Part shown: positions 34,318 through 63,931 of the stretch, in pieces
Layout: every line of letters starts with the position of its first letter
How positions within the stretch are numbered: position 1 is the stretch's first letter
NCBI GenBank assembly: GCA_964515075.1
Contig: CAZETE010000003.1
Location: 14,254-78,253, forward strand
From: an uncultured Actinomycetota bacterium
GTDB taxonomy: Bacteria > Actinomycetota > Geothermincolia > Geothermincolales > Geothermincolaceae
DNA: 64,000 nt
Reading direction: 5' to 3'
Program-made: the position numbers and the translations under genes
Notes under the pieces: model-generated
What the model was told of the DNA's origin: nothing
Databases searched by the model: none
The model's input: only the letters and a program-made list of their open reading frames with translations

Positions 34318-34373
34318 CCCTTCACGTCCTCCTCTCGCTCCTTTCCGGAAGTTCGCTGCGCGTGCTCGAAAAA

Positions 34374-34405
34374 CGTCAATTCTCGTCAGGGCCTGACCCC
34401 GGATT
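34374..34405. repeat. Single arm of the GGGGTCAG inverted repeat, overlapping the fabH 3' end
   Basis: CGTCAATTCTCGTCAGGGCCTGACCCCGGATT differs by one base from the equivalent stretch of the right arm at 18047-18081 plus flank. Confidence 0.85.
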
Positions 34406-35861: not shown

Positions 35862-35863
35862 TC

Positions 35864-37168: not shown

Positions 37169-37172
37169 GCCC

Positions 37173-38081: not shown

Positions 38082-38082
38082 G

Positions 38083-38481: not shown

Positions 38482-38484
38482 GCG

Positions 38485-42391: not shown

Positions 42392-42392
42392 G

Positions 42393-45125: not shown

Positions 45126-45148
45126 AACCTCCCTACCTCCGTTCCACG

Positions 45149-45310
45149 ATTTGGGGTCAGGCCCCAAATTCAGTTTTTCCGCCTCCAACGGCATGGATGA
45201 CCCGCTTCACGTCTGGAAAGTGAAATTTGGGGCCTGCTCTGGAAATGCGACGTTTTCATCCTTCCGTGGTGCCGCGTGGCGCGGCATGAACGACTGACCC
45301 CAAATTCAGT
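45149..45310. repeat. Composite REP-like element (GGGGTCAG family) inside the methyltransferase gene run
   Basis: ATTTGGGG-TCAGG-CCCCAAAT hairpin at 45149-45169; 45216-45301 is the near-exact reverse complement of 6609-6693. Confidence 0.85.
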
Positions 45311-45931
<621 letters not shown>

Positions 45932-45937
45932 GGTCCC

Positions 45938-46579: not shown

Positions 46580-46592
46580 CTCCCCTCCCCCT

Positions 46593-47369: not shown

Positions 47370-47392
47370 CCTCCGCCCGCCTTCCTCCTGCC

Positions 47393-47430
47393 TTGACAAC
47401 CGCCGCTGATTTGTATATATGTATATACAA
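47393..47430 (+). promoter_or_regulatory. Sigma70-type promoter with overlapping HutC-type operator
   Basis: TTGACA 47393-47398; perfect inverted repeat TTGTATATA-TG-TATATACAA 47411-47430 containing GTATATAC (matches the HutC consensus GTMTAKAC). Confidence 0.75.
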
Positions 47431-47475
47431 GTTATAGCAACGGGAGGCTAGGCTGTCAAGCCGGGGAAGGGGAGG

Positions 47476-48621: not shown

Positions 48622-48637
48622 GCAGGAAAGGACGGCC

Positions 48638-49768
48638 ATGAAAGCCAAGGAGAGGATAGACACCGCGATACGCCTGGGCAAGCCCGACCGCATACCGGTG
48701 GTGCCCATGATCGACAGCTTCGCGGCACGCTATGCCGGCGTGACCCAGCACGACATGCTCTTCAACATCTTCCGCTCCGACCGCGCCTTCCTGCGCGTCC
48801 ACCGCGAGCTGGGCCCCATCGACGGCTTCAACTACTCCAACGCCGGGCTGGCCCGGCTGATGGACTCCCTCTCCATCATCCCCCCCATCTGGCCCGGGGT
48901 GGGCGGGGTGGACGAGAACGCCCTCTGGCAGTTCGTGGAGAAGACGGTGATTAAGCCGGAGGACTACCCCGCCCTGGCCGCGAAACCCGGGGCCTTCATG
49001 CGCGACAAGGCCATCGAGCTGCGCTCCGAGCTCAAGGGCCTGTGCGGCTTCTACCTCTACAAGGCCCTGGGCTTCCTCGACGGCCTCAAGGTGATGCTCT
49101 CCTGCCGGATCTGGCGGATGCGGGGCATCGAGCCCATGGTGGGGGCGAACAACATCCTCTTCCCCCTGGAGCAGATCTCCACCCAGCTCCGCTCCTACTC
49201 CGACTTCGTCACCGACCTCTACCGCCACGGGGAGGACCTCAAGCGGGCCGCCCACGCCATGCTCAAGACCTGGTTCCCGCTCTGCCTGGCCGGGCCTTAC
49301 ATCTCCGGGGTGCGGCGCGCCCTCATCGGCATGACGCGCACCAGCGCCACCCTGATGTCGCCCCGGCAGTTCGAGGAGTTCGCCCTGCCCGACCTGGAGG
49401 AGCTGTGCGCCTACCTCATCCGGCACGGCATCACCCCGGTGCTCCACCTGGACAACGAGTGGACCGCCTTCTTCCCCTTCTTCCGCCGCCTGCCCCGGGC
49501 GAAATGCGTCCTCAACCTGGACGGCTCCTCCGACATCTTCGCCGCCAAGGAGGTGCTGGGCGACCACATGTGCATCATGGGGGACGTGCCGGCCACCCTG
49601 CTCAAGCTGTCGGAGCCGGAGGAGGTGGAGGCATACTGCGAGCGCCTCATCCGAGAGGTCGGGGCGGACGGGGGGTTCATCCTCTCCTCCGGCTGCGACA
49701 TCCCCATCGACGCCAAGCCGGAGAACGTCCGGGCCATGCTACAATCGGTGCATAAGTTCAAATATTAG
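48638..49768 (+). CDS. URO-D-family protein, likely MT1 B (tandem paralog)
   Basis: Same motifs as 47476-48621; colinear along its full length. Confidence 0.8.
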   Translation: MKAKERIDTAIRLGKPDRIPVVPMIDSFAARYAGVTQHDMLFNIFRSDRAFLRVHRELGPIDGFNYSNAGLARLMDSLSIIPPIWPGVGGVDENALWQFVEKTVIKPEDYPALAAKPGAFMRDKAIELRSELKGLCGFYLYKALGFLDGLKVMLSCRIWRMRGIEPMVGANNILFPLEQISTQLRSYSDFVTDLYRHGEDLKRAAHAMLKTWFPLCLAGPYISGVRRALIGMTRTSATLMSPRQFEEFALPDLEELCAYLIRHGITPVLHLDNEWTAFFPFFRRLPRAKCVLNLDGSSDIFAAKEVLGDHMCIMGDVPATLLKLSEPEEVEAYCERLIREVGADGGFILSSGCDIPIDAKPENVRAMLQSVHKFKY

Positions 49769-49819: not shown

Positions 49820-50641
49820 GTGTTCTTTCGCAAGACCAAGTGGAGATTCTTCCTCTACGCGCTGCCCTTCTGGCAGCCGCTGACGGACAGGTGGGCCTCC
49901 GTCACCAACTGGCCCATCGTCGGCAAGGCCTCACAGTACCTGCACAACGACGAGCACTACGACGTGACCTTCATCCCCGTGAACCAGGACATCGAACAGG
50001 ACCCCTCCACCGTCCTGCCCCGCCAGGTGGCGGAGGAGATGTGCCGCCGCGCCGCCCACCGGGTCATCCTGCCCATCTGCCTCTGCCGGGTGGGATGCCG
50101 CTGCCAGGACCACCCCATGGAGATCGGCTGCATCTTCATGGGCGAGAGCGCCAAGCAGATCGACCCCAGCATGGGCCGGGCGGTCTCGGTGGAGGAAGCC
50201 ATGGAGCACATCGACCGGGCCATCCGGTCCGGCCTGGTGCTGCAGATCGGGCGGGTGGACGCCGACCCCTTCATGCTGGGCATCAAGCCCCGCGACCGCG
50301 ACCGCTTCCTCACCCTCTGCTTCTGCTGCCCCTGCTGCTGCGTGGCCATGCGCAACATGCCCCGCTGGGCGCCGGAGTTCAAGGCGCGCATGCACGCCCT
50401 GGAGGGATTGAGCATCGAGGTGACCGACGATTGCAACGGCTGCGGCCGCTGCGTCGACGCCTGCTTCGCCGGGGCCATCTCCATCGAGGGGAAACGGGCA
50501 GTCATCAGCGACGCCTGCAAGGGGTGCGGCATCTGCGCCTCCACCTGCCCCCGCCACGCCGTGGTCGTCCGGGTGGAGGACGGCAACCGCATGCTCGAGG
50601 AGGCCTTCCGCCGCATCGAGCGCTACGCCGACGTCACCTGA
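49820..50641 (+). CDS. Cys-rich 4Fe-4S dicluster protein
   Basis: CLCRVGCRC, GCIF, CFCCPCCC, CNGCGRCVDAC, CKGCGICASTCP. Confidence 0.85.
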   Translation: MFFRKTKWRFFLYALPFWQPLTDRWASVTNWPIVGKASQYLHNDEHYDVTFIPVNQDIEQDPSTVLPRQVAEEMCRRAAHRVILPICLCRVGCRCQDHPMEIGCIFMGESAKQIDPSMGRAVSVEEAMEHIDRAIRSGLVLQIGRVDADPFMLGIKPRDRDRFLTLCFCCPCCCVAMRNMPRWAPEFKARMHALEGLSIEVTDDCNGCGRCVDACFAGAISIEGKRAVISDACKGCGICASTCPRHAVVVRVEDGNRMLEEAFRRIERYADVT

Positions 50642-50688
50642 GCTTGCGCCCGCCTCCCTCCGTGCCCCCTTGAACCCGGCGGGCACGA

Positions 50689-50721
50689 CCCCGCAGGCGG
50701 GCTGGGAGGGATCCTGCGGGG
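50689..50721 (+). terminator. GC hairpin after the 4Fe-4S gene
   Basis: CCCCGCAGG (50689-50697) pairs with CCTGCGGGG (50713-50721). Confidence 0.4.
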
Positions 50722-50810
50722 CGCCGGTCCCGGCCCCTCCTGGGCCGGTGCGGCCCGATGGCGTTATAATGCTGGTAGCCGGAGCAGGGCAGGAGCAGGA
50801 AGGACAGGGC

Positions 50811-51275
50811 ATGGAAGGGCAGCAGGTGAGTCAGGAGCCGGCGCCGCAGGCGCAGGATGGGGTGAGCGGGAAGAAGGTGGCGCTCATCTTCTTCCTCATC
50901 TTTTTGGGCCTACTGGCCATCGCGGGCGCGGCCTTCGGCATCTATGTCTGGCGCTTCAACGCCGCCATAAACGACATCTCCATCGAGCCCGTCGACCTCC
51001 TGCAGCTGCCGGACGGCGCCTACTTCGGCAACCGGAGCGTCTTCCACGTGGAGGTCTCGGTTAGCGTCGTGGTCAAGGCCCACCAGATCGTGGCCATCGA
51101 CGTGCTGGACGCGGGGTCCACGGGCAACGGCGGCCAGGGCAAGGAGAACCTGGACCTGCTCATCTCGCGGATCATCGAGTCGCAGGACGTCCGGGTGGAC
51201 ACGGTCAGCGGGGCCACCGCCACCCAGAAGGTCTTCTTGAAGTCAGTGGAGGGGGCCCTGACCCGCGGGGACTGA
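50811..51275 (+). CDS. Membrane-anchored FMN-binding (flavinylated) protein
   Basis: One TM helix, then DGAYFG...VDTVSGAT flavinylation motif; TATAAT at 50765-50770; start reset to ATG 50811. Confidence 0.85.
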   Translation: MEGQQVSQEPAPQAQDGVSGKKVALIFFLIFLGLLAIAGAAFGIYVWRFNAAINDISIEPVDLLQLPDGAYFGNRSVFHVEVSVSVVVKAHQIVAIDVLDAGSTGNGGQGKENLDLLISRIIESQDVRVDTVSGATATQKVFLKSVEGALTRGD

Positions 51276-51319
51276 CGGACGGGGCGCCCGCCCGGAGAAA
51301 CCCCGCCCGGACGGAGGGG

Positions 51320-51787
51320 GTGAGCCCGCTGAACGGGGCAGTCGTTTACTGCGGCAGGCACGACAGCTTGAGAAAGCTGGCCGAGGGCATCGCCGGCGGC
51401 CTGGCGGAGTCGGGTTACGTCGTATCCTTGATGGAGGCGGAGTCGGTGGAGCACCTCGACCCCGACCTGGTCTTCCTGGTGGTGGGCTCCCCCGCCCGCG
51501 CCGGCAGGGCGGCGAGGGCCCCCTCGAGGCTCATCAAGCGCCGGATGGGCGGGGGGTGGGCGGGCAAGCCCTATGCCGTCTTCGCTACGGGCATCCGGGA
51601 CGGGGGCGGCGAGCCGCAGTCCAAGGGGGCCGACCAGCTCCACCGGCTGCTGCGGGAGCGCGGCCTGCTCCCGCTGGCGGAACCCTTCAAGGCCTGCGTA
51701 CAGGCGGCGAAGGGGCCGCTGGAGGAGGGCGAGTTCGAGCGTGCCGTCCAGTTCGGCAGGGACCTCGCCGCCGCCCTGCGCCGCTGA
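51320..51787 (+). CDS. Flavodoxin-like protein
   Basis: VVYCGRHDSL..LAEGIA, VVGSP, YAVFAT, GPLEEGE.ERA..FG. Confidence 0.7.
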   Translation: MSPLNGAVVYCGRHDSLRKLAEGIAGGLAESGYVVSLMEAESVEHLDPDLVFLVVGSPARAGRAARAPSRLIKRRMGGGWAGKPYAVFATGIRDGGGEPQSKGADQLHRLLRERGLLPLAEPFKACVQAAKGPLEEGEFERAVQFGRDLAAALRR

Positions 51788-52004: not shown

Positions 52005-52784
52005 GTGGCCGTAGGGGAGATCCTCCGCATCGACCGGGCCCCCTCCATGCCCGACCTGGTGGCCGGGCGCATCCGGGACATGATCGCCTCCGGAGCCCTT
52101 GAGCCCGGCGACTGCATCCCCCCCCAGACCGCGCTGGCCGGACAGATGGAGGTGAGCCGCGCCAGCGTGCGCGAGGGGCTCAGGTCCCTGGAGGCGGGGG
52201 GGTACATCCAGAGGCTGCCCAACGGCAGGTACCGCGTCACCGCCCTCACCGGGGGCCGGCTGCCCAACCCCCTCCTGGCGGTGCTCAGGTCGGACCCTTC
52301 GCTGGTGTGGGACCTGCTGGAGGCGGCGGAGGTGATGGTGGTGGAGGCGGTGCGCCTGGCGGCGGTGCGCGCCGGCGGAGAGAGCATCCGGAAGATGGGG
52401 GAGACGGTGCGGCAGATGGAGGAGTGCAGCCGCAGCCGCCGCCGCTTCGTGCGCGAGTTCATCCGCGTTTACTCCAATTTCTACGAGGCGCTGGCCGGCG
52501 CCACCGGCAACGTCGTCTACCTCCACCTGGGCCACGCCTTCCTGGAGGTGCTGGCGGAGGCCCTGCCCTACCCGGACAAGCTCTTCCTGGTGCAGGCCGA
52601 CATCTCCACCGTGCTCTACCGCCAGCACCTGGACATCTGGGAGGCCCTGCGGGACGGCGACCCGGGAGCGGCCGCGGCCGCCTTCCGGCGCCACCTGGGC
52701 TTCATCGAGGAGAAACTGCGGATGATCCTGGGGGCGGATGAAGGCCGGAACGCGAAGCCGGCCCTGGACCAAGGGGGTGGATGA
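52005..52784 (+). CDS. FadR-subfamily GntR regulator
   Basis: I..G.LEPGD.IP....LA.QM.VSRASVREGL; FCD domain with ATGN and H..I..A. Confidence 0.92.
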   Translation: MAVGEILRIDRAPSMPDLVAGRIRDMIASGALEPGDCIPPQTALAGQMEVSRASVREGLRSLEAGGYIQRLPNGRYRVTALTGGRLPNPLLAVLRSDPSLVWDLLEAAEVMVVEAVRLAAVRAGGESIRKMGETVRQMEECSRSRRRFVREFIRVYSNFYEALAGATGNVVYLHLGHAFLEVLAEALPYPDKLFLVQADISTVLYRQHLDIWEALRDGDPGAAAAAFRRHLGFIEEKLRMILGADEGRNAKPALDQGGG

Positions 52785-54040
52785 TGGGTTACGCGGACGT
52801 CTTTCCGCGGCTTTCAGCCGGGGTGTCCCAGGCCGACCTGGCCCTGGCCCGGGCCTTGCGGGACTGGGGGGAGAACGAGGTGGCGGGCAAGCGCCTGGAG
52901 TTGAAGGAGGACTACGAAGGGCTGCTCAAGCCGGCCATGCGCAAGCTCTTCTGGGATATCGGCATGCAGAAGATCGCCTGGCCGGAGCGGCTCGACGGGG
53001 GCGGCCAGGACACGCCGGACCTGGCCCCGACCATGGCGACGGCCCTGGAGGAGATCGGCCGCGCCGACACCGGCATCGCCTGCCTGCTCGCCGTCGACCT
53101 CGCCTTGAGCGCGGCGGTGGCCATGCCCCCGGGTCCGCCCGGGGCCCTGCTGGAGAGGATGGCCGGCGATTTCTGCCGGTCCGGCAGGGCGGTCGTCGTC
53201 TCGCTGGTCCTTCCGGCCCTGGGGGGCAGGGCCGCCGGCAGCCTGGGCGAGTACCGCGGCAAGACCGTCCCCCTGGCCAGGCCGGAGGGCGGAGGGTGGG
53301 CCGTGGACGCGCGGGGCCTGCGCCCCTTCAACTCCGGGGCCGACGCCGACTTCTTCTGCGTGGCCTGTTCCGCCGCCGAAGGCGAATCCCCCCTGCTGCT
53401 GATGGTCCCCGGCGACGCGGCGGGCCTCAAGCGCGGGGCGGAGTTCAAGAAGACCGGGCTGGCCGCCAGCCGCAATGCCGACATAGACCTCGAGAACGTG
53501 AAGGTACCGGCGGAGCAGGTGCTGCTGCGGGGGGAAGCGGCCTGGCGCGGGCTCCTCTCCTGGCTGTGCCTGGGGATGAGCGCCACCTGCACCGGCGCCC
53601 TGCTGGCCGCCTACGAGATCATCCGGGAATGGGGGGACACCCGGGTGATCAAGGGGCGGGGGTGCGCCTTCCGGGACAACCCCCTGACCGCCTCGCTGAT
53701 GGCGGAGATCGCCACCACCGCGACGGTGGCGCGCCTGCTCACCGGCTCGCTGTCCCAGCTGCTGGCCGAGCCTTCCGTCCACGGGGACGCCGGCTCCGAG
53801 AGGGTCTGGGCGGCCGCCTGGGGCGTTTTCAACCGGGTGAGCGCCTCGGCGGAACAGGCCATCGACAACACCATGGAGCTGATGGCCTCGGCCGGCTACG
53901 CCAAGGAGTGGCAGCTGGAAAGGTACTGGCGCGACGTCAAGACCGTCGCGGTCAGCATGGGCAGCCGTGAGCTGGGCAAGATGGACCTGGCCCGCTGGTT
54001 CTACGGGGCCCGGCCGCTGGGAGGAGGTGGAGGGGAATGA
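52781..54040 (+). CDS. Degenerate acyl-CoA dehydrogenase-fold protein A
   Basis: WPERLDGGG, EEIGRAD, MELMASAGYAKEWQLERYWRD; TEP and YEG motifs absent. Confidence 0.85.
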   Translation: MMGYADVFPRLSAGVSQADLALARALRDWGENEVAGKRLELKEDYEGLLKPAMRKLFWDIGMQKIAWPERLDGGGQDTPDLAPTMATALEEIGRADTGIACLLAVDLALSAAVAMPPGPPGALLERMAGDFCRSGRAVVVSLVLPALGGRAAGSLGEYRGKTVPLARPEGGGWAVDARGLRPFNSGADADFFCVACSAAEGESPLLLMVPGDAAGLKRGAEFKKTGLAASRNADIDLENVKVPAEQVLLRGEAAWRGLLSWLCLGMSATCTGALLAAYEIIREWGDTRVIKGRGCAFRDNPLTASLMAEIATTATVARLLTGSLSQLLAEPSVHGDAGSERVWAAAWGVFNRVSASAEQAIDNTMELMASAGYAKEWQLERYWRDVKTVAVSMGSRELGKMDLARWFYGARPLGGGGGE

Positions 54041-55311
54041 GGCTGCGCACCATCGACGATATCACCCGGCCGCGGGAGTACCTCTCCCCCCTGGACGAGT
54101 ACCTGGGGGGGATCATCCGCAAGTGGGCCGACACGGAGGTCATCCCCCACCGGCGCCGTTACGACGAGGACTGGAAGGACCACGAGCTCATCGAGCCCGC
54201 CTTCCGCAAGCTGATGGGGGAGATGGGCCTGCAGCGCCTGCTCTTCCCCGAGGACCTGGGGGGCTGGGGCATGGGCCACTCGGACTACCTGGGCACCGGG
54301 GCCTACCGCATGTTCGAGGAGGTCGCCCGGGCGGACTCGGCCATGGCCGTCGCCTTCGGCGTGGTCTTCTGGCCGCTGGTGATGATCTGCAACGAGCCCC
54401 ACGTCAACCGGCGGCTGTGCGAGGAGTTCGCCCCCCTCTTCTGCTCCACCACCGAGGCGGTCTTCGCCGCCAACGCCATGACCGAGCCGCAAGGGGGGGC
54501 GGACATCGAGAACGTGGAGGTCCTCGGCGGCTCCACCATCCAGACCACCGCGGTGAGGGACGGGGACGAGTGGGTGATCAACGGCCACAAGCTCTGGCCC
54601 ACCAACTCGGGCGGCGTCTCCAGCCTCTTCTCGGTCATCTGCACCACCGATCCCGGCGTCAACGACCCCGCCAACTTCGCCTTCATCTTCGTCCCGGCAG
54701 GCCTGCCCGGGGTGACCCAGGGCGGGCCCTACGAGAAGGCGGGCATGGCCGCGGACAAGAACGGCGACATCTGGTTCGAGAACGTGCGGGTGCCCTCCTG
54801 GTACCGCGCCTTCGGGCCGGGGCTGGACTTCGAGTACTTCAAGGAGGTGGTGGCCCTGGGCAACATGGGCTCCGTCGCCTTCGTCTCCGGCGCCATGATC
54901 AACGTCTACGAGCGGCTCTACGACTTCGTCACCGAGCACAGCTTCGGGAAGAGGGCCTTAAAGGAGCACGACGCGGTGGCCGGGGTGCTGGCGGACTTCG
55001 CCGCCTCCCTGGAGGTCATCCGCATCGTCGGCTACCAGCTGGCGCGGATGATGGACCGCCCGGACGTCTACGGTCCGCGCTGGGCGGCGGAGAACGTGGC
55101 CAAGGGGCGCGCCTACAAGTACTTCGCCTGCGACCGCGCCATGACCGAGATCGGCCGGGTGCTCAACCTGATGGAATCGCTGGGGGCGGACCGCGACTCC
55201 GACGTCGAGAAGCACTGGCGCGACCTGAAGATCGTCCAGCTGTGGATGGGCGGCAAGCAGCTCTGCCAGATGGAAGTGGCCCGCTGGTTCTTCGAGTGCG
55301 AGACCCTCTAG
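54037..55311 (+). CDS. Acyl-CoA dehydrogenase-fold protein B
   Basis: FPEDLGG.G, EEVARADS, AMTEPQGGAD, INGHKLWPTN, EKHWRDLKIVQLWMG. Confidence 0.92.
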   Translation: MRLRTIDDITRPREYLSPLDEYLGGIIRKWADTEVIPHRRRYDEDWKDHELIEPAFRKLMGEMGLQRLLFPEDLGGWGMGHSDYLGTGAYRMFEEVARADSAMAVAFGVVFWPLVMICNEPHVNRRLCEEFAPLFCSTTEAVFAANAMTEPQGGADIENVEVLGGSTIQTTAVRDGDEWVINGHKLWPTNSGGVSSLFSVICTTDPGVNDPANFAFIFVPAGLPGVTQGGPYEKAGMAADKNGDIWFENVRVPSWYRAFGPGLDFEYFKEVVALGNMGSVAFVSGAMINVYERLYDFVTEHSFGKRALKEHDAVAGVLADFAASLEVIRIVGYQLARMMDRPDVYGPRWAAENVAKGRAYKYFACDRAMTEIGRVLNLMESLGADRDSDVEKHWRDLKIVQLWMGGKQLCQMEVARWFFECETL

Positions 55312-55325
55312 GCGGTGATGCGGCC

Positions 55326-56003
55326 ATGCAGGAGACGACCAGGCAGGCCGGCATGGTGGACGCCGCCAACCGCGTCGCCCGCGAGCTGCTCCGGACCCCG
55401 CGCTTCAAGGAGGGCCTCAAGATGGTGCTCGACTCGCTGGACCCGGAGTCCGCGCCGGAGCTGGTGCGCACGCTGGTCTGGGAGGATACCGACGTCTTCC
55501 TCTCCCTGGCCGGCTCGCTGCCCCGGCTCCTGAACATCTTCTTTTACGCCTTGAAGGAGCTGGCGGAGCAGCTGGGCAGCTTCCCCCCGGAGATGCTCTC
55601 CGGCTTCCTGGCCGGGGCCGTGGAGGGCCTGGAGGGAGAGGCGCTGGGGGAGGCGCTGGGGAGCGCGGCGCGTCTCCTCGCCCGGGTGTCGGAGGCGTCC
55701 GGCGAGAGGGTGCCCCGGAGCGCCGGGGAACTCGCCCGCTCGGCGGGCCGGGGCTTCGCCGGGGCCCGCCATCCCGGCGGGCAGGCCGAGGAGCCCTCCC
55801 CGGCCGCGGCTGCGCTGGCCGCCGTGAGCCGGGCGGTCAAGGCCGCGGCGGCGGCGGCCGCGGTGGAGGGCTCTCCCGCCCGCCGGGCCCTGAAGGCCTG
55901 CGCGGAGGACCTGGCCGGGGCCGTGCGGGAGCACCCGGAACTGGTCCGGGAGGCGGCCCCCGTCCTCGAGGCCCTGCGCGCCGCGGGCTGGGGGGTGGCG
56001 TGA
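55326..56003 (+). CDS. Unknown all-helical protein H1
   Basis: Start reset to ATG 55326; N-terminal half aligns by eye with 56003-56746. Confidence 0.75.
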   Translation: MQETTRQAGMVDAANRVARELLRTPRFKEGLKMVLDSLDPESAPELVRTLVWEDTDVFLSLAGSLPRLLNIFFYALKELAEQLGSFPPEMLSGFLAGAVEGLEGEALGEALGSAARLLARVSEASGERVPRSAGELARSAGRGFAGARHPGGQAEEPSPAAAALAAVSRAVKAAAAAAAVEGSPARRALKACAEDLAGAVREHPELVREAAPVLEALRAAGWGVA

Positions 56004-56746
56004 TGGAGAAGACGGTGCCGGCCGCGGGCGCGGAGACCTCCGGAGCCCTGCCGCGGGTGATGCGGGAGCTCATCCGCACCCCCGTGTTCCGGGAGCTGCT
56101 CAAGCTGAACCTGCGGGAGGCGCCCCACGGCAGCGCCGCGGAGCTGGCGCGGGTCCTCGTCTTCGAGGACGTAGACATCTTCCTGAGCCTGTTCGGCTCA
56201 TCCCCCCAGGCCGTCAACTCCGCAAGCGAGTTCCTGCTGGAGCTGGCGCGGCAGCTCGAGAGCTTTCCCCCGGAAGTGCTGCGCGCATTCATCCGGCGCA
56301 TGGGCGCCAAGGTCGAGGTGGAAGCCGTCAAGGCCCTGCCGGGGGCCGTCTCGCCCCTCTTCGACGCCCTGCTCTGGAGCGATGCAGCCGCGGTGCAGGG
56401 CCTGCGCGACCTGCTGGCGGCGGCGGCCAACGCTGCCCTCTGGGGCGGCGCGGACGTCCTCAAGCGCCTGGAGGAGGCCCCGGCCGGCGGCGGGCGTCGG
56501 CCCGGGCTGGACGCCGAGGCGGTGGCCGAACTGATCAACGCGGGAGCCCGCACCTTCGGCATGGCCGCCTCCTCCCGCCCCGCCTTCCTGGCCGAGGTGG
56601 CCACCCACCTCGACCGCGAGGCCCTGCGCGCCGCGGCCGACGGGGCGCTCGACGCCGTCTCGGAGGCCGGCATCTCCGTGGTGGCGGCGTTCTCCTGGGC
56701 CCTGAAGGCGGCCTGGAAGATCATTAAAGGTAAGCTTAAGAGTTAG
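56003..56746 (+). CDS. Unknown all-helical protein H2 (paralog of H1)
   Basis: TGATG coupling to H1; shares REL.RTP.F.E.L..SA.EL.R.LV.ED.D.FLSL.GS.P..N..L.ELA.QL.SFPPE.L with H1. Confidence 0.8.
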   Translation: MEKTVPAAGAETSGALPRVMRELIRTPVFRELLKLNLREAPHGSAAELARVLVFEDVDIFLSLFGSSPQAVNSASEFLLELARQLESFPPEVLRAFIRRMGAKVEVEAVKALPGAVSPLFDALLWSDAAAVQGLRDLLAAAANAALWGGADVLKRLEEAPAGGGRRPGLDAEAVAELINAGARTFGMAASSRPAFLAEVATHLDREALRAAADGALDAVSEAGISVVAAFSWALKAAWKIIKGKLKS

Positions 56747-56816: not shown

Positions 56817-58337
56817 GTGGTGGCGTTGTCCGAGAAGGACCAGGCCCGGGAGAAGACCAAGGATTACCGGAGAGAGGTGAGGAAGGAGGTCAAGGACCTG
56901 CTGGGGCTGCTCGAGGCGGCCGAGAAGGCCCCGGCGGGAGAGGTCCTCTACGGAGGAAAGGCCGCTTTGGGGCGCGAGGCGCTCCTGGCCCTCCCCCGCC
57001 TGCTCAAGATTTACCTTCAACTTATGGTTGATGCTTCCGACTACCTGACGGGCCTGCCGGAGGAGGAGTGGAAGTCCTTGGAGGACGCCGCCCTGGCCTC
57101 GCTGGAGGAGATGCCCCTGGGGGAGGCGGTGAACGCCTATTTCCGCCTCTCGCGCAGGCTCTGGGAGGAGGACGCGGAGGCGCTGGCGGAGGCGGAGCTC
57201 GGCCTGGCCGCCGCGGCCATCGAGCGCATCGACTTCGGCAAGGTGCGCAAGGCCGTGGAGGTGAAGCTTGAGGGGCGCTACCCGGTCTACGCGGGGGTGA
57301 TCGACCGCCTGGTGGGAGACCCCATCATCATCGCCAACCTGCTCACCGCCGCTCCGGCTTACGCCAACACCCTCCTCCGCCTGTTGAACAGGGTCCTGGC
57401 CGGCCTGGACCTGCCGTCGGAGATCCTGGCCTCGGCCATCTTCAACCTGCTCGAGGCCCTCGACGTCGAGGAGGCGGGGCGGGTGGCCACGGGGATCTCC
57501 CAGGTCGTCAAGTCCCTGCACGAGGGCAGCCTGGTGCTGGGCTTAAACGAGCCCCGCTTCCGCGAGGTGGCCGAGCGGCTGGTTGAGCGCTTCCTCTCCT
57601 CCGCCGACTGGCAGTCCGGCTACGAGGCGGTGGCGGCGCTCTCCGAGAACCTGGAGGTGCTCATCCGGGTCATGGCGGACTCCGCCGTCTCCCGCCCCGA
57701 GTTGATGGCGGCCGGAGCATCCTGCGCCGCCCGCTCCCTGGGCTCGCTCATCCGCGGCCTCTCCTATTCCGCCCGCCGCCTGGAGGTCCTGCCCGACGCC
57801 TTCTTCGAGACGTGGGGCCGCGCCGTCCTGGACCACGCCGAGCTTCGCGAGCTGGGCGAGCTGGTCAACTCCCTGCTGGTGGCACACAACCGCCTGGCGG
57901 ACGCCAACCCGGGTATGCTGGGGGAGGCCCTGGACCGGGCCTGGAGCGGCATCGACCCGGAGGAGCTGGGCCGGGCCGCCCGGGAAGGCATGCGCCAGAC
58001 CTTCGGCTGGCTGCTCAGGCAGGACCCCGCCGGGCTCTTCGAGCCGGGCGAGGCGGGGCGCCTGCTCAACGAGCTCATCGCCGCATACAACCGCTCCCCG
58101 GCCTTCTCGCCGGGCGCCTTGCGCGATTACCTGGGAAGCGTCCTGGGTCAGTTGGACCCGCAGGAGCTGGGCCGGGCCCTGGACTCCGCCGCCTCCCAGG
58201 TGGTGGAGGCGGTCACCGCCGAGCCGGCGCTGGCGAGGGTCTTGATGCGCTCCGCGCTGGGGGCGTTGTGGAAGGCGTTCAAGGGGACGGCGGGCGCGCT
58301 GCTCGCCGCCTGGAGGGGCCGGAAGGCGGGTGGTTGA
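56817..58337 (+). CDS. Unknown helical-repeat protein H3
   Basis: 506 aa; internal repeats IDPEELGRA / LDPQELGRA / LDVEEAGRV and LGEAVN / LGELVN / AGRLLN. Confidence 0.8.
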   Translation: MVALSEKDQAREKTKDYRREVRKEVKDLLGLLEAAEKAPAGEVLYGGKAALGREALLALPRLLKIYLQLMVDASDYLTGLPEEEWKSLEDAALASLEEMPLGEAVNAYFRLSRRLWEEDAEALAEAELGLAAAAIERIDFGKVRKAVEVKLEGRYPVYAGVIDRLVGDPIIIANLLTAAPAYANTLLRLLNRVLAGLDLPSEILASAIFNLLEALDVEEAGRVATGISQVVKSLHEGSLVLGLNEPRFREVAERLVERFLSSADWQSGYEAVAALSENLEVLIRVMADSAVSRPELMAAGASCAARSLGSLIRGLSYSARRLEVLPDAFFETWGRAVLDHAELRELGELVNSLLVAHNRLADANPGMLGEALDRAWSGIDPEELGRAAREGMRQTFGWLLRQDPAGLFEPGEAGRLLNELIAAYNRSPAFSPGALRDYLGSVLGQLDPQELGRALDSAASQVVEAVTAEPALARVLMRSALGALWKAFKGTAGALLAAWRGRKAGG

Positions 58338-59451
58338 GGTGGAGAAGATGCAGGGCTTGGCGAGCGTGCTCGAGAACGACTACGTGAAGAAGGCCAAGGC
58401 GGAGGGCGTCCCGGTCGTCGGCTACGCCTGCCTGGCCACGCCGCGCGAGATCTTCGACGCCGCCGGCATACTCCCCTACCGCCTCAGGGGCATGTCGGTG
58501 TCCCGCACCGAGCTGGCCGATGCCTACCTCTCCCGCTTCAACTGCGGCTTCTGCCGCTCCTGCCTGCAGCTGGCCCTGGACGGCAGCTACGGCTTCTTCG
58601 ACGGGCTGCTGGAGACCAACGGCTGCGACCACCTGCGCGGCATGTTCGAGAACTGGCAGTACGCCCACCCCGAGGAGTTCTTCCACTACCTGCGCGTCCC
58701 CCACCTCACCGACGAGGAGTCTACGGACTGGTTCGCAGAAGAGCTCGGCCTCTTGAAGGAGGCGCTCGAGGACCGCTTCGGGGTGTCCATAAGCGACGCC
58801 GACCTCTCCGCGGCCATGGACCGGCAGGCCTCCATCGCCCGGAAGCTCCGGGACATCTACGAGAGCCGCTGGGGCGACCGCATCAAGGTCAGCGGCGGCG
58901 AGATCCTCCAGCTGATGGTGCTGGAGGGGTCCATGCGTCCCGCCGACTTCTCCGCGCTGCTGGACGAGTTCGCCGCGGAGCTGGAGGAGCGCCAGCCCCT
59001 GGAGTACCGGGCGCGCATCTTCATGGGCGGCTCAGCCACCGACGAGGTCGAATTGCTGACCGAGCTGGAGGCCCTGGGAGGGGTGGTGGTGGCCGACTCC
59101 TTCTGCTTCGGCGGGCGCATCTTCCGCAACGGGGAGGAGCCGGAGGGCTCCCCCCTCGAGCGGCTGGCCCGGCGCTACCTGCACAACCTGATGTGCCCGC
59201 GCATGTTCGACGACTACGCGCGGCGCAAGGCCTTCATCGACGGCCTCATCTCCGGGTCACGGGCGGACGGCGCCATCCTCTTCCACAACAAGTTCTGCGA
59301 CGTGCACGGGGTGGAGAACGTCAAGCTGCGCATGGACCTGGAGAAGGAGGGGCTGCCGGTGCTCACCCTGGAGAAGGAGTACGGCGCCTCGGCGGACATC
59401 GGGAGGCTCAAGACCAGGGTGCAGGCCTTCCTGGAAAGACTGAGGAAGTGA
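58330..59451 (+). CDS. 2-hydroxyacyl-CoA dehydratase / benzoyl-CoA reductase family subunit (beta/BcrC-like)
   Basis: VGY....PREIFDAAG, three cluster Cys (FNCGFC, NGCD, KFCD), VVADSFC.G.R, RLKTRVQAFLE. Confidence 0.88.
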   Translation: MVEVEKMQGLASVLENDYVKKAKAEGVPVVGYACLATPREIFDAAGILPYRLRGMSVSRTELADAYLSRFNCGFCRSCLQLALDGSYGFFDGLLETNGCDHLRGMFENWQYAHPEEFFHYLRVPHLTDEESTDWFAEELGLLKEALEDRFGVSISDADLSAAMDRQASIARKLRDIYESRWGDRIKVSGGEILQLMVLEGSMRPADFSALLDEFAAELEERQPLEYRARIFMGGSATDEVELLTELEALGGVVVADSFCFGGRIFRNGEEPEGSPLERLARRYLHNLMCPRMFDDYARRKAFIDGLISGSRADGAILFHNKFCDVHGVENVKLRMDLEKEGLPVLTLEKEYGASADIGRLKTRVQAFLERLRK

Positions 59452-60923
59452 CGGCCGTGACCGACGTACTCATCAAGGAGCATCAGGGCCTCTACGACCG
59501 GGTCTATTCCCTCTTCTCCATCGTCGGCAGGCTGAAGGAGGAGATGAGCCCGGAGGAGGTGGAGGGGATGCTCAGGGTGCTTCCCCCCGACACCTACAAG
59601 GCCCTCAAGTCCATGCTGCGCCAGGACCTCCTGCCCGCCACCCTGGCCTTCATGCGCATGCTCAAGGCCTGGATGGACGAAGCGGTGCGGGCGCGGGAGG
59701 AAGGCAGGAAGGTCATCCTGGTGCCCTTCAACTTCCCCCCCGAGCTCATCCACTCCTTCGAGGGGGCCTTCCCCCTGACCAGCGAGGTCCTCTCCACCCT
59801 GGGGGTGGTGGCGCTGGAGGGCCAGGGCGAGCGCTACTGGGACTACGCCATGGGCCTGGGCCTGCCCGACCACCTCTGCTCCTCCAACACCATCGCCCTG
59901 GGGAGCATCCTCACCGGGTCCGACTTCTCGCCGGACGCCATCGTCTCCTCCGCCGCGGGCGCCTGCGACGTCAACGCCATGGTCCACGAGTTCGTCGCCC
60001 ACCTGCTGGACGTCCCCCACATCATGCTGGAGAAGCCGGGGGACAGCGGCCGCCGGGGGCGGGAGCTCTTCGGCCGCTACTACCGGCGGATGGTCCGGCA
60101 GCTGGAGGAGTTCGTCGGCGAGGAGCTCGAGGCGGACAACCTGGAGGTGGTGGCGGAGAAGAGCAACCGCTGCACCGAGCTCTATTACGACCTCTGGGAA
60201 CTGCGCAAACAGATCCCCTCGCCCGTGCCGGCCATCTTCGCCCTCTACACCTACGCCACCCGCTTCACCATGTGGGGGCGGGACGAGGGCATCGCCTGCC
60301 TAGAGGCCTGCGTCGACGTGGCCCGCCGCAACCTGGAGAGGGGGACCTTCCCCGCCGCCGGAGAGGTGGCCCGCCCCCTGTGGATCTACCTCCCCTACTT
60401 CTTCGACTTCGTGGGCTTCTTCGACTGGATGGAGTCGCGCAACATCGCCAACATGGGCGACGTGCTGATGTGCTGCTTCCCCTCCAGGGTGGACACCTCC
60501 TCCAAGGAGGCCATCCTCGACGGCATGTGCGAGGCGGCCTGGAACATGCCCATGACCCGCCAGATGGGCGGCGACGTCATGTCCCAGCGCTGGCTCTCGG
60601 ACATCGTCTACACGGTGAAGGAGCTCAACTGCAACTGCGCCATCTACTGCGGCCACCACTCCTGCAAGCAGACCTGGAGCGTCTTCTCCCAGGTGCGCAA
60701 CGAGATAACCCGCCAGGCCGGGGTGCCCACCCTGTGCCTGCAGGGGGACACCTGGATCGGGCGCACCACCCCCATCAGCGTCATCCAGGAAGAGATCGCC
60801 ACCTTCGTGGACAACGTGGTGGCCGGGGGCGGCCGGCGCCGCCGGCGGAGCAGGGCGAAAGCCGCGGCCGGCGCGCCCGCGAAGCCCGGCGAGGCGGAGG
60901 CCGCCGGGGAAGAGGCGGGATGA
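59448..60923 (+). CDS. 2-hydroxyacyl-CoA dehydratase family subunit (alpha/BcrB-like) 1
   Basis: Start reset to GTG 59448 (GTGA overlap); PPELIHSF, DHLCS, GACD, HSCKQ, PTLCLQGD. Confidence 0.88.
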   Translation: MTAVTDVLIKEHQGLYDRVYSLFSIVGRLKEEMSPEEVEGMLRVLPPDTYKALKSMLRQDLLPATLAFMRMLKAWMDEAVRAREEGRKVILVPFNFPPELIHSFEGAFPLTSEVLSTLGVVALEGQGERYWDYAMGLGLPDHLCSSNTIALGSILTGSDFSPDAIVSSAAGACDVNAMVHEFVAHLLDVPHIMLEKPGDSGRRGRELFGRYYRRMVRQLEEFVGEELEADNLEVVAEKSNRCTELYYDLWELRKQIPSPVPAIFALYTYATRFTMWGRDEGIACLEACVDVARRNLERGTFPAAGEVARPLWIYLPYFFDFVGFFDWMESRNIANMGDVLMCCFPSRVDTSSKEAILDGMCEAAWNMPMTRQMGGDVMSQRWLSDIVYTVKELNCNCAIYCGHHSCKQTWSVFSQVRNEITRQAGVPTLCLQGDTWIGRTTPISVIQEEIATFVDNVVAGGGRRRRRSRAKAAAGAPAKPGEAEAAGEEAG

Positions 60924-62341
60924 GGAGAGCGGTGGTCGAGGTAGGGCGGCAGGCCGGCGACGGCCTCTTCAGGCGGGTGGAGAACCTGGTCAAGGTGGCG
61001 ATGCGCCTGCCCGACGACTTAAGCGACGAGGAGGCCGAGGGCCTGGTCCGGGCGCTGCCGGCCGACACCGCCCGCAACATCGCGGCCATGCTCCACCCGC
61101 GCTTCCGCCCGGTTTCCATCGCCTTCATGAAGATGGTGGGGCGGTGGATGTTCGAGGGCAGCCGGGCCGGGGAGGAAGGGATGAAGGCCGTCCTCATCCC
61201 CTTCAACTTCCCGCCCGAGGTCATCCGCATCTTCCGCCGGGCCCGCCCCCTCACCTGCGAGTTCCTCACCACCGTGGGAGTGGCCATGCTGGAGGGCCAG
61301 GGCGAGCGCTACTGGGACTTCGCCATGGGGCTGGGCATCCCCGACTTCCTCTGCTCCTCCTCCACCATAGAGCTGGGATCCATCCTCTCCGGCTCCGACT
61401 TCTCCCCCGACGCCCTGGTGCAGTCGGCGCCCGGCGCCTGCGACGCCAACTCCAAGATCCACGAGTTCGTCTCCCGCTACATGGGGGTGCCCCAGTTCGT
61501 CGTCGAGAAGCCGGTGGATGGCGGGGCGCGGGGCAGGGAGCAGCACCGCCGCAGCTTCCGCCGCTTCATCCGGGACCTGGAGGAGTTCACCGGCGAGGAG
61601 CTGGACGAGGGGCACATGCGCGAAGTCCTTACGCGGGCCAACCAGGCGGCGGAGCTCTACTACGACCTCCACGAGATGCGCAAGGCCGCCCCCTGCCCGG
61701 TGCCCAACATCATCTCTCTCTACACCTACGGGGTCCGCTTCACCACCTGGGGCACCCGGGAAGCGGTGGAGATGATGCGCATGATGGTGGAGCTGGCGCG
61801 GGCGCGCCTGGAGAAGGGGGAGTACCCGGCCGCCGAGGAGGTGGCCCGCTGCATGTGGCTGTACATCGGCTACTACTACGATTTCATGGGCTTCTTCAAC
61901 TGGATGGAGGAGAACGGCATCACCTACCTCAACGACATCCTCTCCCTCTGCCAGCCCCTGCGCATCGACACCACCTCCAGGGAGAGCATGCTGGACGGCC
62001 TGGCCGAGGCGGTCTTCGAGTACCCCATGACCCGCCAGATGGGAGCGGGCTCCATGTCGGAGTCGTGGGTGGAGGACATGTCCCGCTTCATCAAGGAGCT
62101 GGGGGCCAACTGCGCCGTCTACTCCGGCCACCACGCCTGCAAGCAGACCCAGAGCATCATCGGCCGGGTGCGGGAGGAGATCGTCAGGCGCACCGGGGTC
62201 CCGGTGCTCTGCCTCACCGGCGATTCGTGGATACGCAGGATGACCCCCACCGGCGTGCTGCAGGAGGAGCTGTCTTCCTTCGTGGACAACGTGGTGGCGA
62301 AGAAGAAGGCGCGCCGCCGCAAGGCGGCCGGCGTAGAGTAG
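60920..62341 (+). CDS. 2-hydroxyacyl-CoA dehydratase family subunit (alpha/BcrB-like) 2
   Basis: Start reset to ATG 60920; PPEVIRIF, DFLCS, GACD, HACKQ, PVLCLTGD; full-length paralog of 59448-60923. Confidence 0.88.
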   Translation: MRRAVVEVGRQAGDGLFRRVENLVKVAMRLPDDLSDEEAEGLVRALPADTARNIAAMLHPRFRPVSIAFMKMVGRWMFEGSRAGEEGMKAVLIPFNFPPEVIRIFRRARPLTCEFLTTVGVAMLEGQGERYWDFAMGLGIPDFLCSSSTIELGSILSGSDFSPDALVQSAPGACDANSKIHEFVSRYMGVPQFVVEKPVDGGARGREQHRRSFRRFIRDLEEFTGEELDEGHMREVLTRANQAAELYYDLHEMRKAAPCPVPNIISLYTYGVRFTTWGTREAVEMMRMMVELARARLEKGEYPAAEEVARCMWLYIGYYYDFMGFFNWMEENGITYLNDILSLCQPLRIDTTSRESMLDGLAEAVFEYPMTRQMGAGSMSESWVEDMSRFIKELGANCAVYSGHHACKQTQSIIGRVREEIVRRTGVPVLCLTGDSWIRRMTPTGVLQEELSSFVDNVVAKKKARRRKAAGVE

Positions 62342-62354
62342 AAAGGAAGGGCAG

Positions 62355-63152
62355 ATGGCCAAGCGCTATGGAGGCATCGATGTCGGCTCCCTCTCCGCCC
62401 AGGCGGTGATCCTGGAGAACGGCTCCATCCGGTCTTATTACACCATGCCGGTGAAGCCCAACCCGCTGGACTCGGCGACCAGCGTGCTGTACCTGGCCCT
62501 GGAGGCGGGCGGCCTGGAGCCGGGCGACCTGGCCTTCACCGTCAGCACCGGCTACGGCAGGGAGCAGGTCCAGAAGGAGGGCCTCTCGCAGGCCAACGTG
62601 AGCGAGATCTCCGCCCACGGCAAGGGGGCGCACTGGCTGCTGCCGGCAGCGCACACCATCATCGATATCGGCGGGCAGGACGCCAAGGTGATCCGGGTGG
62701 ACCGGGACGGCGAGCTGGTGGACTTCGTCATGAACGACAAGTGCGCGGCGGGGACCGGACGCTTCCTGGAGGTGATGGCCCGCACCCTGGGCGTCTCCCT
62801 GGAGGAACTGGGCCCCCTCTCCTTCAAGGCCCGCAACCCCATCGAGCTCTCCACCCGCTGCAGCATCTACTGCGAGACCGAGGCCCTCCACTACCTGCAG
62901 CGCGGGGTGGAATCGGCGGACATCGCCGCCAGCGTCAACCGCACCATGGCCGAGCGGGTGCTGGCCCTGGTGCGCCGGGTGGGCATGGAGAAGGAGGCCA
63001 CCATGACCGGCGGGGTGGCCAAGAACGTGGCGGTGCGCAAGGAGCTGGAGCGCCTCATCGGCTCCCGGCTGCTCGAGTACGACGTCGATTCGCAGATCGT
63101 GGGGGCGCTGGGAGCGGCCCTCATCGCCAGGGAGCAGGGGGGCGGCCGATGA
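62355..63152 (+). CDS. ATP-dependent electron-transfer activase (HgdC/BcrA/D-type ASKHA) 1
   Basis: GIDVGS, TGYGR, EISAH, DIGGQDAK, MNDKCAAGTGRFLE, RCSIYCETE, TGGVAKN. Confidence 0.93.
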   Translation: MAKRYGGIDVGSLSAQAVILENGSIRSYYTMPVKPNPLDSATSVLYLALEAGGLEPGDLAFTVSTGYGREQVQKEGLSQANVSEISAHGKGAHWLLPAAHTIIDIGGQDAKVIRVDRDGELVDFVMNDKCAAGTGRFLEVMARTLGVSLEELGPLSFKARNPIELSTRCSIYCETEALHYLQRGVESADIAASVNRTMAERVLALVRRVGMEKEATMTGGVAKNVAVRKELERLIGSRLLEYDVDSQIVGALGAALIAREQGGGR

Positions 63153-63931
63153 TCACCATGGGGGTGGACGTGGGCAGCCTCTTCTCCAAGGCGGTGATCC
63201 TGCGCGACGAGGAGATGCTGGCCGGCGAGGTCCGCGAGACCACCGGCAACGTGGCGCGGGAACTGGACGGCCTCATCGCGGCGGCGCTGGACCGGGCGGG
63301 CATCGGCCCGGGGGAGGTGGAGGTCTGCGTGAGCACCGGCACCGGGGGTGACCTGGTCAAGCCGGCCGAGTTCGACGAGGACGACGTGGCCTGCCTGGCC
63401 ATGGCCTGCCGCCACTTCCTGCCGGAGGTGGCGGTGGTGGTCAACATCGGCGGGCAGTCCATCGCCACGGTCCTCTCCGACGCCGAGGGAGAGGTGCTCG
63501 ACTTCATGCGCAACGACAAGTGCGCCTCCGGTTCGGGGCGCTATCTCGAGGTGATGAGCGCCGCCCTGGGGGTGCCGGTGGACATGATCGACGCCACGGC
63601 CGAACGGGCGGAGCGGCGCATCTCCATCAGCTCGCAGTGCGGGGTGTTCGCGGAGAGCGAGATCGTCTCCCACGTCAACCAGGGCGAGCCGGTGCCGGAC
63701 ATCGTGGCCGGGCTCTGCGACTCGGTGGCCTCCATGGTCATCTCCCAGGCCATGCGCTTCGGGGGCGGCGGCGACTACACCATCACCGGCGGGGTGGCCC
63801 GCCTGAAGAGCGTGACCGGCATGATGCAGGAGAGGATGCGCGGCACCTATCACCCCTTCCCCATCGACCCCATGCTAGCCGCCGCCTTCGGGGCCGCCCT
63901 CATCGGCGGCCTGGAAGAGCTGCCCGAGTAG
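63149..63931 (+). CDS. ATP-dependent activase 2 with degenerate nucleotide motifs
   Basis: GVDVGS, STGTGG, NIGGQSIA, NDKCASGSGRYLE, SSQCGVFAESE, TGGVAR; start reset to ATG 63149. Confidence 0.9.
   Translation: MITMGVDVGSLFSKAVILRDEEMLAGEVRETTGNVARELDGLIAAALDRAGIGPGEVEVCVSTGTGGDLVKPAEFDEDDVACLAMACRHFLPEVAVVVNIGGQSIATVLSDAEGEVLDFMRNDKCASGSGRYLEVMSAALGVPVDMIDATAERAERRISISSQCGVFAESEIVSHVNQGEPVPDIVAGLCDSVASMVISQAMRFGGGGDYTITGGVARLKSVTGMMQERMRGTYHPFPIDPMLAAAFGAALIGGLEELPE

Follow-up and report, generated by a model that had tools for sequence, protein, structure and literature searches.

A pair of acyl-CoA dehydrogenase-like proteins without the known catalytic bases, encoded with a BzdNOPQ-like ATP-dependent Fe-S module

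Genes and features of the operon

The window analysed here is a stretch of 64,000 nucleotides from an uncultured Actinomycetota bacterium, and all coordinates are positions in this whole stretch. It contains two adjacent genes for acyl-CoA dehydrogenase (ACAD)-like proteins, termed ACAD-A and ACAD-B, in which every base position known from the family lacks an acid. The G+C content is around 70% across the window, and codon-position G+C reveals a closely packed plus-strand operon around the pair. Most gene junctions of this operon are 4-base overlaps (ATGA or GTGA), including those between the regulator and ACAD-A and between ACAD-A and ACAD-B. The genes, and the sites of interest within them, are as follows.

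52005..52784, plus strand: GntR/FCD-family regulator (Pfam GntR and FCD), with a stop codon that overlaps the ACAD-A start (ATGA)
52781..54040, plus strand: ACAD-A, 419 residues, a degenerate ACAD-like subunit with weak Pfam ACAD N, M and C domains
53957..53959, plus strand: Met393 codon of ACAD-A, at the MCAD Glu376 position
54037..55311, plus strand: ACAD-B, 424 residues, the subunit with the predicted FAD pocket (Pfam ACAD N, M and C domains)
54481..54597, plus strand: isoalloxazine-side FAD motifs of ACAD-B, TEPQGGADIEN ... NGHKLWPTN
54847..54864, plus strand: helix-G segment VVALGN of ACAD-B, with Gly275 at the IVD/LCAD base position and Asn276 replacing the conserved Arg
55246..55248, plus strand: Met404 codon of ACAD-B, at the MCAD Glu376 position, within the motif QLW[M/L]GGKQ
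55326..56003, plus strand: small helical protein 1, 225 residues, no Pfam or NCBIfam match
56000..56746, plus strand: small helical protein 2, 248 residues, with a hydrophobic and basic C-terminal tail
56817..58337, plus strand: large all-alpha protein, 506 residues, with a Trp-containing hydrophobic and basic C-terminal tail
58330..59451, plus strand: BzdN-like small HGD-D subunit, predicted carrier of an [8Fe-9S] double cubane (best PDB match BzdN)
59448..60923, plus strand: HadB/BzdO-like large subunit paralog 1, 491 residues (Pfam HGD-D; three invariant Cys)
60920..62341, plus strand: HadB/BzdO-like large subunit paralog 2, 473 residues, ortholog of the single copy of other loci
62355..63152, plus strand: BcrAD/HgdC-type electron-activating ATPase subunit 1 (Pfam BcrAD_BadFG, 1.5e-58; TIGR00241, 227 bits)
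63149..63931, plus strand: BcrAD/HgdC-type ATPase subunit 2

The operon extends past base 64000, as seen from contigs that carry an identical ATPase gene (L084). An alternative-frame open reading frame of 678 codons (53967-56003, plus strand) spans ACAD-B. It is real only in its last ~225 codons (from 55326), which belong to small helical protein 1. Artefacts of this sort are typical of high-G+C DNA, and automated gene callers could be misled by this one.

Catalytic-base positions and FAD half-sites

An earlier reading of this DNA, made from the sequence only, had proposed that both proteins lack the catalytic glutamate and carry Met in its place. The strings it quoted are all present in the two open reading frames. 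In ACAD-A, VKTVAVSMGS spans residues 386-395 and WLCLGM residues 261-266. In ACAD-B, LKIVQLWMGG spans residues 397-406, VVALGN 271-276, TEP 149-151 and NGHKLW 182-187. When searched with phmmer against PDB chains, the MCAD segment KIYQIYEGTSQ pairs with KIVQLWMGGKQ of ACAD-B, and RITQIYEGTSE of a butyryl-CoA dehydrogenase-like chain pairs with KTVAVSMGSRE of ACAD-A, which places Met404 of B and Met393 of A at the position of MCAD Glu376. An hmmalign alignment to a canonical ACAD profile agrees, and Met does stand at this position in both proteins.

The same profile was used to align 119 ACAD-B and 115 ACAD-A orthologs. At the Glu376 column, ACAD-B orthologs have Met (100) or Leu (19), and ACAD-A orthologs have Leu (91), Ile (10), Met (8) or Val (5). 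None of the ~234 orthologs has Glu or Asp at this column, whereas all of the canonical ACADs aligned with them do (13 of 13), a loss that on this comparison is far beyond chance. Counted over about 120 ACAD-B and 118 ACAD-A orthologs, the column is likewise free of acids. The idea of Met as a shared trait of the pair does not survive, given this variation, and its presence in both proteins is incidental to this genome. Because Leu replaces Met freely, Met itself is read here as having no special meaning; from the alignment, the conserved trait of the column is a hydrophobic residue. An invariant QLW-x-GGKQ motif encloses the column in ACAD-B.

A second base position lies on helix G, where Glu254 of IVD is equivalent to Thr255 of MCAD (Glu261 in LCAD). 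A Gly had been proposed here for both proteins. This is correct for ACAD-B, in which Gly275 is Gly in 119 of 119 orthologs. In ACAD-A the register was around three residues off, and the equivalent is Leu262, not Gly265. The assignment of Leu262-Cys263 comes from a hand alignment to the G-G-R-I-G motif, as the profile alignment is gapped there, and the residue is non-acidic in either register. ACAD-A orthologs carry Leu, Tyr or Phe at this base position. The loss of the conserved Arg from VVALGN of ACAD-B was read correctly (Asn276 replaces MCAD Arg256), and the equivalent Arg is missing from both proteins, with Cys263 in ACAD-A. The alignment likewise bears out that TEP and NGxKxW are lost from ACAD-A and retained by ACAD-B.

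The third position is that of cyclohexenoyl-CoA dehydrogenase (Ch1DH), a strict-anaerobe ACAD with Asn241 and Thr363 at the canonical Glu positions, which uses the dienoyl-CoA from benzoyl-CoA reductases (PMC9293079). Ch1DH is among the better PDB sequence matches of both A and B, and shares with them the replacement of the canonical Glu. Unlike the pair, it has a substitute base, Asp91, and no degenerate partner subunit. A substitute base of this type was rejected for A and B, as the Asp91 column, in an alignment that includes Ch1DH, holds an invariant Trp112 in ACAD-B and Leu or Ala in ACAD-A. The MCAD-, IVD/LCAD- and Ch1DH-type positions are non-acidic in every one of the ~234 orthologs, with no exceptions, in line with the earlier proposal that the pair is not a conventional dehydrogenase. 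Compared with a functional ACAD, the fold is present and a carboxylate at any known base position is absent. ACAD-B does have invariant acids outside the three positions, namely Asp156, Glu158, Asp264 and Glu270.

Another ACAD-fold flavoprotein of anaerobes, 4-hydroxybutyryl-CoA dehydratase, performs radical and not hydride/proton chemistry, and binds a [4Fe-4S] cluster through Cys and His. A similar site in ACAD-B (Cys118, His122, Cys128 and Cys421) was considered and rejected, since relatives of 42-60% identity carry other residues in place of Cys118 and Cys128.

In terms of structure, the AlphaFold2 (AF2) model of ACAD-B has a pLDDT of 85.7 and a pTM of 0.89, with isobutyryl-CoA dehydrogenase (IBD) and MCAD as best Foldseek matches (TM 0.8-0.9). 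On this model, ACAD-B has an ordinary ACAD fold. Residues Trp112, Trp403, Gly275 and Gly405-Gly406-Lys407 of its pocket are invariant, and the pocket is predicted to be hydrophobic, lined by Trp112, Trp403, Met/Leu404, Gly108, Gly275 and Gly406, together with Lys269 and Lys407.

In MCAD, the isoalloxazine side of FAD is bound by Thr136, Glu137, Gly141, Trp166, Thr168 and Gln380 of one subunit, and the ADP moiety is held by the neighbouring subunit through its C-terminal domain (Arg281, Thr283-Gly285, Gln349, Gly353 and Phe356). These two halves are divided between A and B. The isoalloxazine residues T149, E150, P151, G153, G154, W187 and N190 of ACAD-B are invariant in 119 of 119 orthologs (T189 in 117 of 119), and its trans-subunit ADP contacts vary among orthologs. 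In ACAD-A the isoalloxazine side is degenerate, with Arg at the position of MCAD Trp166, and the trans-acting residues R287, G291, E365, S369 and Y372 are invariant in 115 of 115 orthologs. This numbering refers to a 418-residue form; adding 1 gives the 419-residue open reading frame (Arg288/Gly292/Glu366/Ser370/Tyr373). Neither subunit has a complete FAD site of its own, the isoalloxazine half being confined to B and the trans-acting half to A.

Since only the B pocket combined with the A C-terminal domain gives a complete site, one FAD per A-B dimer is predicted. From these sequence features we infer that A and B most likely form a heterodimer, probably as A2B2, with this stoichiometry. The heteromer that the sequence-only reading had proposed gains support from the complementary half-sites, the ATGA gene overlap, and the adjacency of the A and B genes in every related locus. 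Known alpha2beta2 ACADs of steroid degradation in actinobacteria are ChsE4-ChsE5 (FadE26-FadE27) and ChsE1-ChsE2 (FadE28-FadE29). The pair resembles them in that the two genes adjoin, one subunit lacks a FAD pocket of its own, and the half-sites are complementary; the steroid enzymes carry a single FAD per heterodimer. Unlike A and B, the steroid enzymes keep the catalytic Glu and are true beta-oxidation dehydrogenases, and the A/B operon is built around an ATP-dependent Fe-S reductase-like module.

The neighbouring module and its conservation

The small HGD-D subunit has BzdN as its best PDB match (8S02_B, E = 4.7e-41), followed by HadC and the double-cubane protein DCCP. Six of its cysteines (34/72/99/259/289/323) are invariant in 10 of 10 orthologs, and align with the six ligands of the [8Fe-9S] cluster of BzdN, Cys36/73/100/263/293/327 (PMC11971306). 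In dehydratases, the double cubane has shrunk to a [4Fe-5S] remnant (PMC11971306). Because the six cysteines are kept here, the module resembles, by sequence, a reductase and not a dehydratase. The large HGD-D subunit has three invariant Cys, as in BzdO and HadB, and is otherwise very divergent (HadB E = 1.5e-6, no BzdO match). It is present as a tandem duplicate in the window (59448-62341), with copies that are 54% identical, and as a single copy in other loci. The duplication could provide two substrate specificities on one electron-delivery set. Both ATPases have two Cys that are 39 residues apart (Cys130 and Cys169 in subunit 1), the spacing of the HgdC-type bridging cluster.

The genes of the module therefore resemble BzdNOPQ (PDB 8S02; PMC11971306) in the six [8Fe-9S] cysteines, in the three-Cys large subunit, and in the two distinct BcrAD-type ATPases with two cluster Cys each. 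They differ from it in a large subunit without detectable similarity to BzdO, and in the absence of bzd pathway genes and of a ferredoxin gene from the core. BzdNOPQ, for its part, has no ACAD-like or helical partners. All NCBIfam equivalogs score below their cut-offs (for example, BzdN 129 against 454 and BzdQ 198 against 380), so the module is not a known benzoyl-CoA reductase (BCR) or HAD. A second likeness is to the clostridial Had, Fld and Lcd/acryloyl-CoA reductase sets, in which HGD-D enzymes and ATPase genes lie beside ACAD-family genes. The ACADs of those sets, unlike A and B, keep the Glu and come with EtfAB, and the dehydratases have a single activator gene. Unlike the module described here, these dehydratases have the [4Fe-5S] remnant (PMC11971306).

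As for the helical proteins, the small ones share an N-terminal domain of ~110 residues with each other and with orthologs in all loci. Its pattern is RELLRTPxFKE...DPxxAPxLVRTLxWxD, it has no Pfam model, and the large helical protein holds segments related to it. The AF2 model of the large protein is all-helical (pLDDT 67), and with this model no Foldseek match better than E = 1.3 was found. Small helical protein 2 ends in ...AAFSWALKAAWKIIKGKLKS, with a net charge of +4. A hydrophobic stretch, often with Trp, followed by a basic tail (net +4 to +8), ends all 5 large-protein orthologs examined, and one small paralog has the same type of tail in most loci examined. The pattern is seen in the window, L001, L002, L006, L008, L010, L012, L090 and L091. 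Judging by their composition, these tails probably bind the membrane and hold the complex there.

In several loci the operon ends with a protein of ~240 residues, which weakly resembles the middle domain of acetyl-CoA synthase (ACS), and then a MinD/CooC-like P-loop ATPase. These two genes are found at the following positions.

L084:1654-3151
L001:18570-20020
L002:17800-19261
L090:17745-19188

The ~240-residue protein matches only residues ~310-490 of CdhC/AcsB, with E = 1e-3 to 5e-5 for the copy of this genome and 2.7e-12 for the best match elsewhere. A nickel/ACS link was rejected, as the match covers the ACS middle domain only and not the A-cluster domain, and is marginal here. The two proteins may be maturation or CoA-binding factors.

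The earlier reading had linked the pair, as a possible reductase or electron relay, with a "radical module". The association stands, since the operon that contains the pair recurs in 10 of 11 related loci, which come from several phyla; the module itself is better described as a BzdNOPQ-like ATP-dependent reductase with a double-cubane subunit. The loci that share the gene set, with some changes in order, are L001, L002, L004, L006, L008, L010, L011, L012, L090 and L091, and their hosts include Bacillota, Actinomycetota, Desulfobacterota-type metagenome-assembled genomes (MAGs), Lernaella and others. The recurring set comprises a regulator, A, B, one to three small helical proteins and one large one, the small and large HGD-D subunits, and one or two BcrAD-type ATPases. 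The regulator is of the TetR family in 8 of the 10 other loci, against GntR/FCD in the window, and L006 and L091 have a single longer ATPase gene.

Electron-transfer flavoprotein (ETF) genes, which would encode the usual acceptor of a functional ACAD, adjoin 1 of the 10 loci and are absent from the window; this count covers the loci and the window, and such genes may be present elsewhere in the genome. Among 83 flanking genes there is no recurring CoA ligase, CoA-transferase, hydratase or thiolase. Ferredoxin-type domains occur in the flanks of five loci, with no ferredoxin gene inside the core, where the other redox proteins are only the Fe-S proteins of the BCR-like module. Directly upstream of the ortholog operon in one locus (L090:3814-7981) lie an APH-type kinase, a separate ACAD of 418 residues and EtfBA. 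The kinase and ACAD arrangement recalls ACAD10/11-type 4-hydroxyacyl-CoA catabolism.

At least 120 protein clusters, each defined at 90% identity, match ACAD-B at 68-84% identity. These come from Bacillota, Actinomycetota (Geothermincolia, Solincola, Anoxymicrobiaceae), Lernaella, Syntrophomonadaceae, Syntrophaceae and other MAGs. The ortholog set of ACAD-A is comparable in size, at ~45-76% identity. DNA runs containing the gene are from anaerobic digesters, sludge and some marine metagenomes; the run search found no RNA runs holding it. Mean pairwise identity is 63% in B and 42% in A; the HGD-D subunits and the ATPases are at ~47%, and the large helical protein is at 25%. ACAD-B is the most conserved component of the system. 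Among the enzymes, conservation relative to the window copy is lowest for the large HGD-D subunit (27-50% identity). A most conserved B, with a variable and duplicated large HGD-D subunit, agrees with a coupling module that stays constant beside a substrate module that varies.

In an exhaustive search that covered 1.84 billion representative proteins, the A and B types came out as mutual nearest relatives. The clade around them is mostly Glu-less (42-60% identity to B), and the closest Glu-bearing relatives are ~38% identical. One relative of B (P0125, 43% identical) retains the Met, combines both FAD half-sites in one protein and has no A-type partner. This points to a loss of the base earlier than the A/B duplication. 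No HGD-D or BcrAD genes lie near P0125 in its locus (L092:9075-15067). Of two small genes beside it, one weakly matches SCP2 (lipid/sterol-carrier) and the other looks similar by eye, and these neighbours hint that the base-less clade handles hydrophobic ligands. Another Met-bearing B-like protein (P0123, 46% identical; L086:3871-15127) is found near a ChsH2-like protein, a TonB receptor and a molybdoenzyme set similar to ethylbenzene dehydrogenase/steroid C25 dehydrogenase. These neighbours suggest that the sister lineage belongs to an anaerobic steroid or alkyl-chain context. Fused double-ACAD proteins (770-790 residues) also exist; they were given no weight as Rosetta-stone support, as the single context seen is ordinary beta-oxidation.

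Possible roles of the pair and other genes of the window

ATP-dependent enzymes of the BCR, HAD and double-cubane families perform some of the hardest reductions of anaerobic metabolism. For most members, we know of no assigned substrate or electron-delivery route. With somewhat less than even confidence, we propose that the A-B pair is a redox-coupling module that exchanges electrons with the ATP-driven Fe-S module. The isoalloxazine would sit in the B pocket, with the ADP part held by the C-terminal domain of A. Over the flavin, Met/Leu404, Gly275-Asn276 and Trp112 would occupy the three base positions, leaving no acid or base. For this reason the pair is not expected to abstract an alpha-proton or to act as an acyl-CoA dehydrogenase, and its flavin would be limited to passing electrons or hydride. 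A ligand in the Trp-lined pocket of B would swap electrons with FAD, and FAD would swap single electrons with the Fe-S/ATPase chain, like flavodoxin with the activators of 2-hydroxyacyl-CoA dehydratases. The hard reduction would take place at the large HGD-D subunit, and the basic hydrophobic tails of the helical proteins would hold the complex at the membrane. We favour redox coupling because the flavin site is strictly selected without a base, because ETF is absent from the core, where the Fe-S proteins are the sole other redox proteins, and because B is the most conserved component.

Several points weigh against this proposal. ACAD flavins usually have potentials of around -100 mV, far too positive to reduce the [4Fe-4S] cluster of a BcrAD-type ATPase, so a role as donor needs an unusual flavin potential. 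A flavodoxin/ferredoxin-type gene lies near several loci, including the window, and is a possible real donor. The invariance of the pocket (Trp112, Trp403, Gly275 and Gly405-Gly406-Lys407) fits a true substrate site equally well. Finally, in one locus (L009), A, B and two small helical proteins follow a dcw/ftsZ cluster, with no HGD-D or BcrAD gene within 10 kb. A bolder form of redox coupling would make the pair, together with its helical partners as membrane tethers, a new type of input or output port that links a hydrophobic, membrane-borne ligand in the B pocket (such as quinol/quinone or lipid) to the ATP-driven double-cubane reductase, as a membrane-coupled low-potential system without ferredoxin, with the ACAD fold as a pure electron-transfer or bifurcating flavin site. 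We consider this quite unlikely.

The rival with most in its favour, though still unlikely, is that B converts a product or substrate of the neighbouring reductase, for example by passing hydride to a dienoyl- or enoyl-thioester from the large HGD-D subunit, with solvent, Lys407, Lys269 or a partner protein as proton source. There is a precedent in a Glu-less ACAD that acts on a BCR product (PMC9293079). The invariant pocket residues, and the place of B as the most conserved protein, agree with it. The best NCBIfam match of A and B, far below the cut-off, is cyclohexane-1-carbonyl-CoA dehydrogenase, and clostridial 2-hydroxyacyl-CoA dehydratases are known to precede enoyl-CoA reductases of the ACAD type. 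However, the base position of that precedent is taken by the invariant Trp in B and by Leu or Ala in A, the MCAD Arg256 equivalent is lost from both, ETF is found at one locus of ten, and a CoA-ester pathway is not evident from the flanking genes, as none of the expected CoA enzymes recurs. A conventional dehydrogenase, with its base at a fourth position or supplied by the partner subunit, is the least probable of all, and very improbable. The ACAD base has already moved twice in evolution, and the four invariant acids of B may be candidates. Against this, each of the three known positions has a hydrophobic residue or Gly, the conserved Arg is missing, no ETF is conserved, and most of the clade around B is Glu-less (42-60% identity to B), with Glu-bearing relatives no closer than ~38%.

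Non-redox roles are also to be weighed. The pair may serve the Fe-S machine as a scaffold, assembly factor or substrate presenter, in the way that ACAD9 serves complex I, with a flavin that is structural or absent. A is clearly degenerate, the pair is always found with fast-evolving helical proteins of tether or scaffold look, and the L009 arrangement keeps pair and small helical proteins without an Fe-S module nearby. The invariance of the isoalloxazine residues of B and of the trans FAD residues of A, across ~115-119 orthologs, is hard to explain without a functional flavin, and we hold this role to be improbable. Less probable again is non-redox thioester chemistry, such as the hydrolytic desulfination of 3-sulfinopropanoyl-CoA desulfinase (AcdDPN7). 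This enzyme also has an ACAD fold and no catalytic Glu, a combination of Glu loss and non-redox chemistry that is on record (cited in PMC9293079), and A and B have weak NCBIfam matches to its family. On NF042439, which has a cut-off of 600, B scores 54 bits and A 29 bits. Furthermore, the operon context differs, with no sulfur-metabolism genes, and the desulfinase is encoded by a single gene and is not known to have a partner subunit, unlike a heteromer with one degenerate subunit.

Judged by sequence comparison, the parts belong to known superfamilies, and the system as a whole falls short of the defining features of each nearest family. In the literature searched (ACADs with HGD, CooC, double-cubane and Glu-less themes) we found no description of this operon. 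A base-less, putatively single-flavin ACAD heterodimer as a fixed partner of a double-cubane ATP-dependent reductase, with probable membrane-tether proteins, appears to be new with respect to that literature. The system is widespread, being found in several phyla and common in digesters and sediments, and its most conserved part is a flavoprotein that seems to have given up acid-base catalysis for good. If the pair is a redox port, it would extend the known roles of the ACAD fold, and would suggest a new route by which an Fe-S "archerase" machine is fed or drained. In terms of annotation, thousands of genes are misleadingly labelled "acyl-CoA dehydrogenase", and this label inflates the predicted beta-oxidation capacity of syntroph and anaerobic Actinomycetota MAGs.

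Upstream of the operon, the window contains an O-demethylase-like corrinoid set (44298-49768, both strands), composed of a pterin-binding methyltransferase, two B12-binding corrinoid proteins and two MtaA/UroD-like methyltransferases. It represents a kit for anaerobic methoxy-group metabolism in a high-G+C genome. A functional link to the pair was considered and rejected, as these genes are not kept beside it in any other locus. The set is followed (49820-51787) by an EFR1-like ferredoxin-domain protein, an FMN_bind protein and a flavodoxin-like protein. Lastly, two FAD_binding_4 (GlcD-like) oxidoreductases and a CCG/Fer4_8 (GlcF/HdrD-like) Fe-S protein are encoded on the minus strand (39474-43937), between fatty-acid-synthesis genes (32712-39294) and the corrinoid genes.

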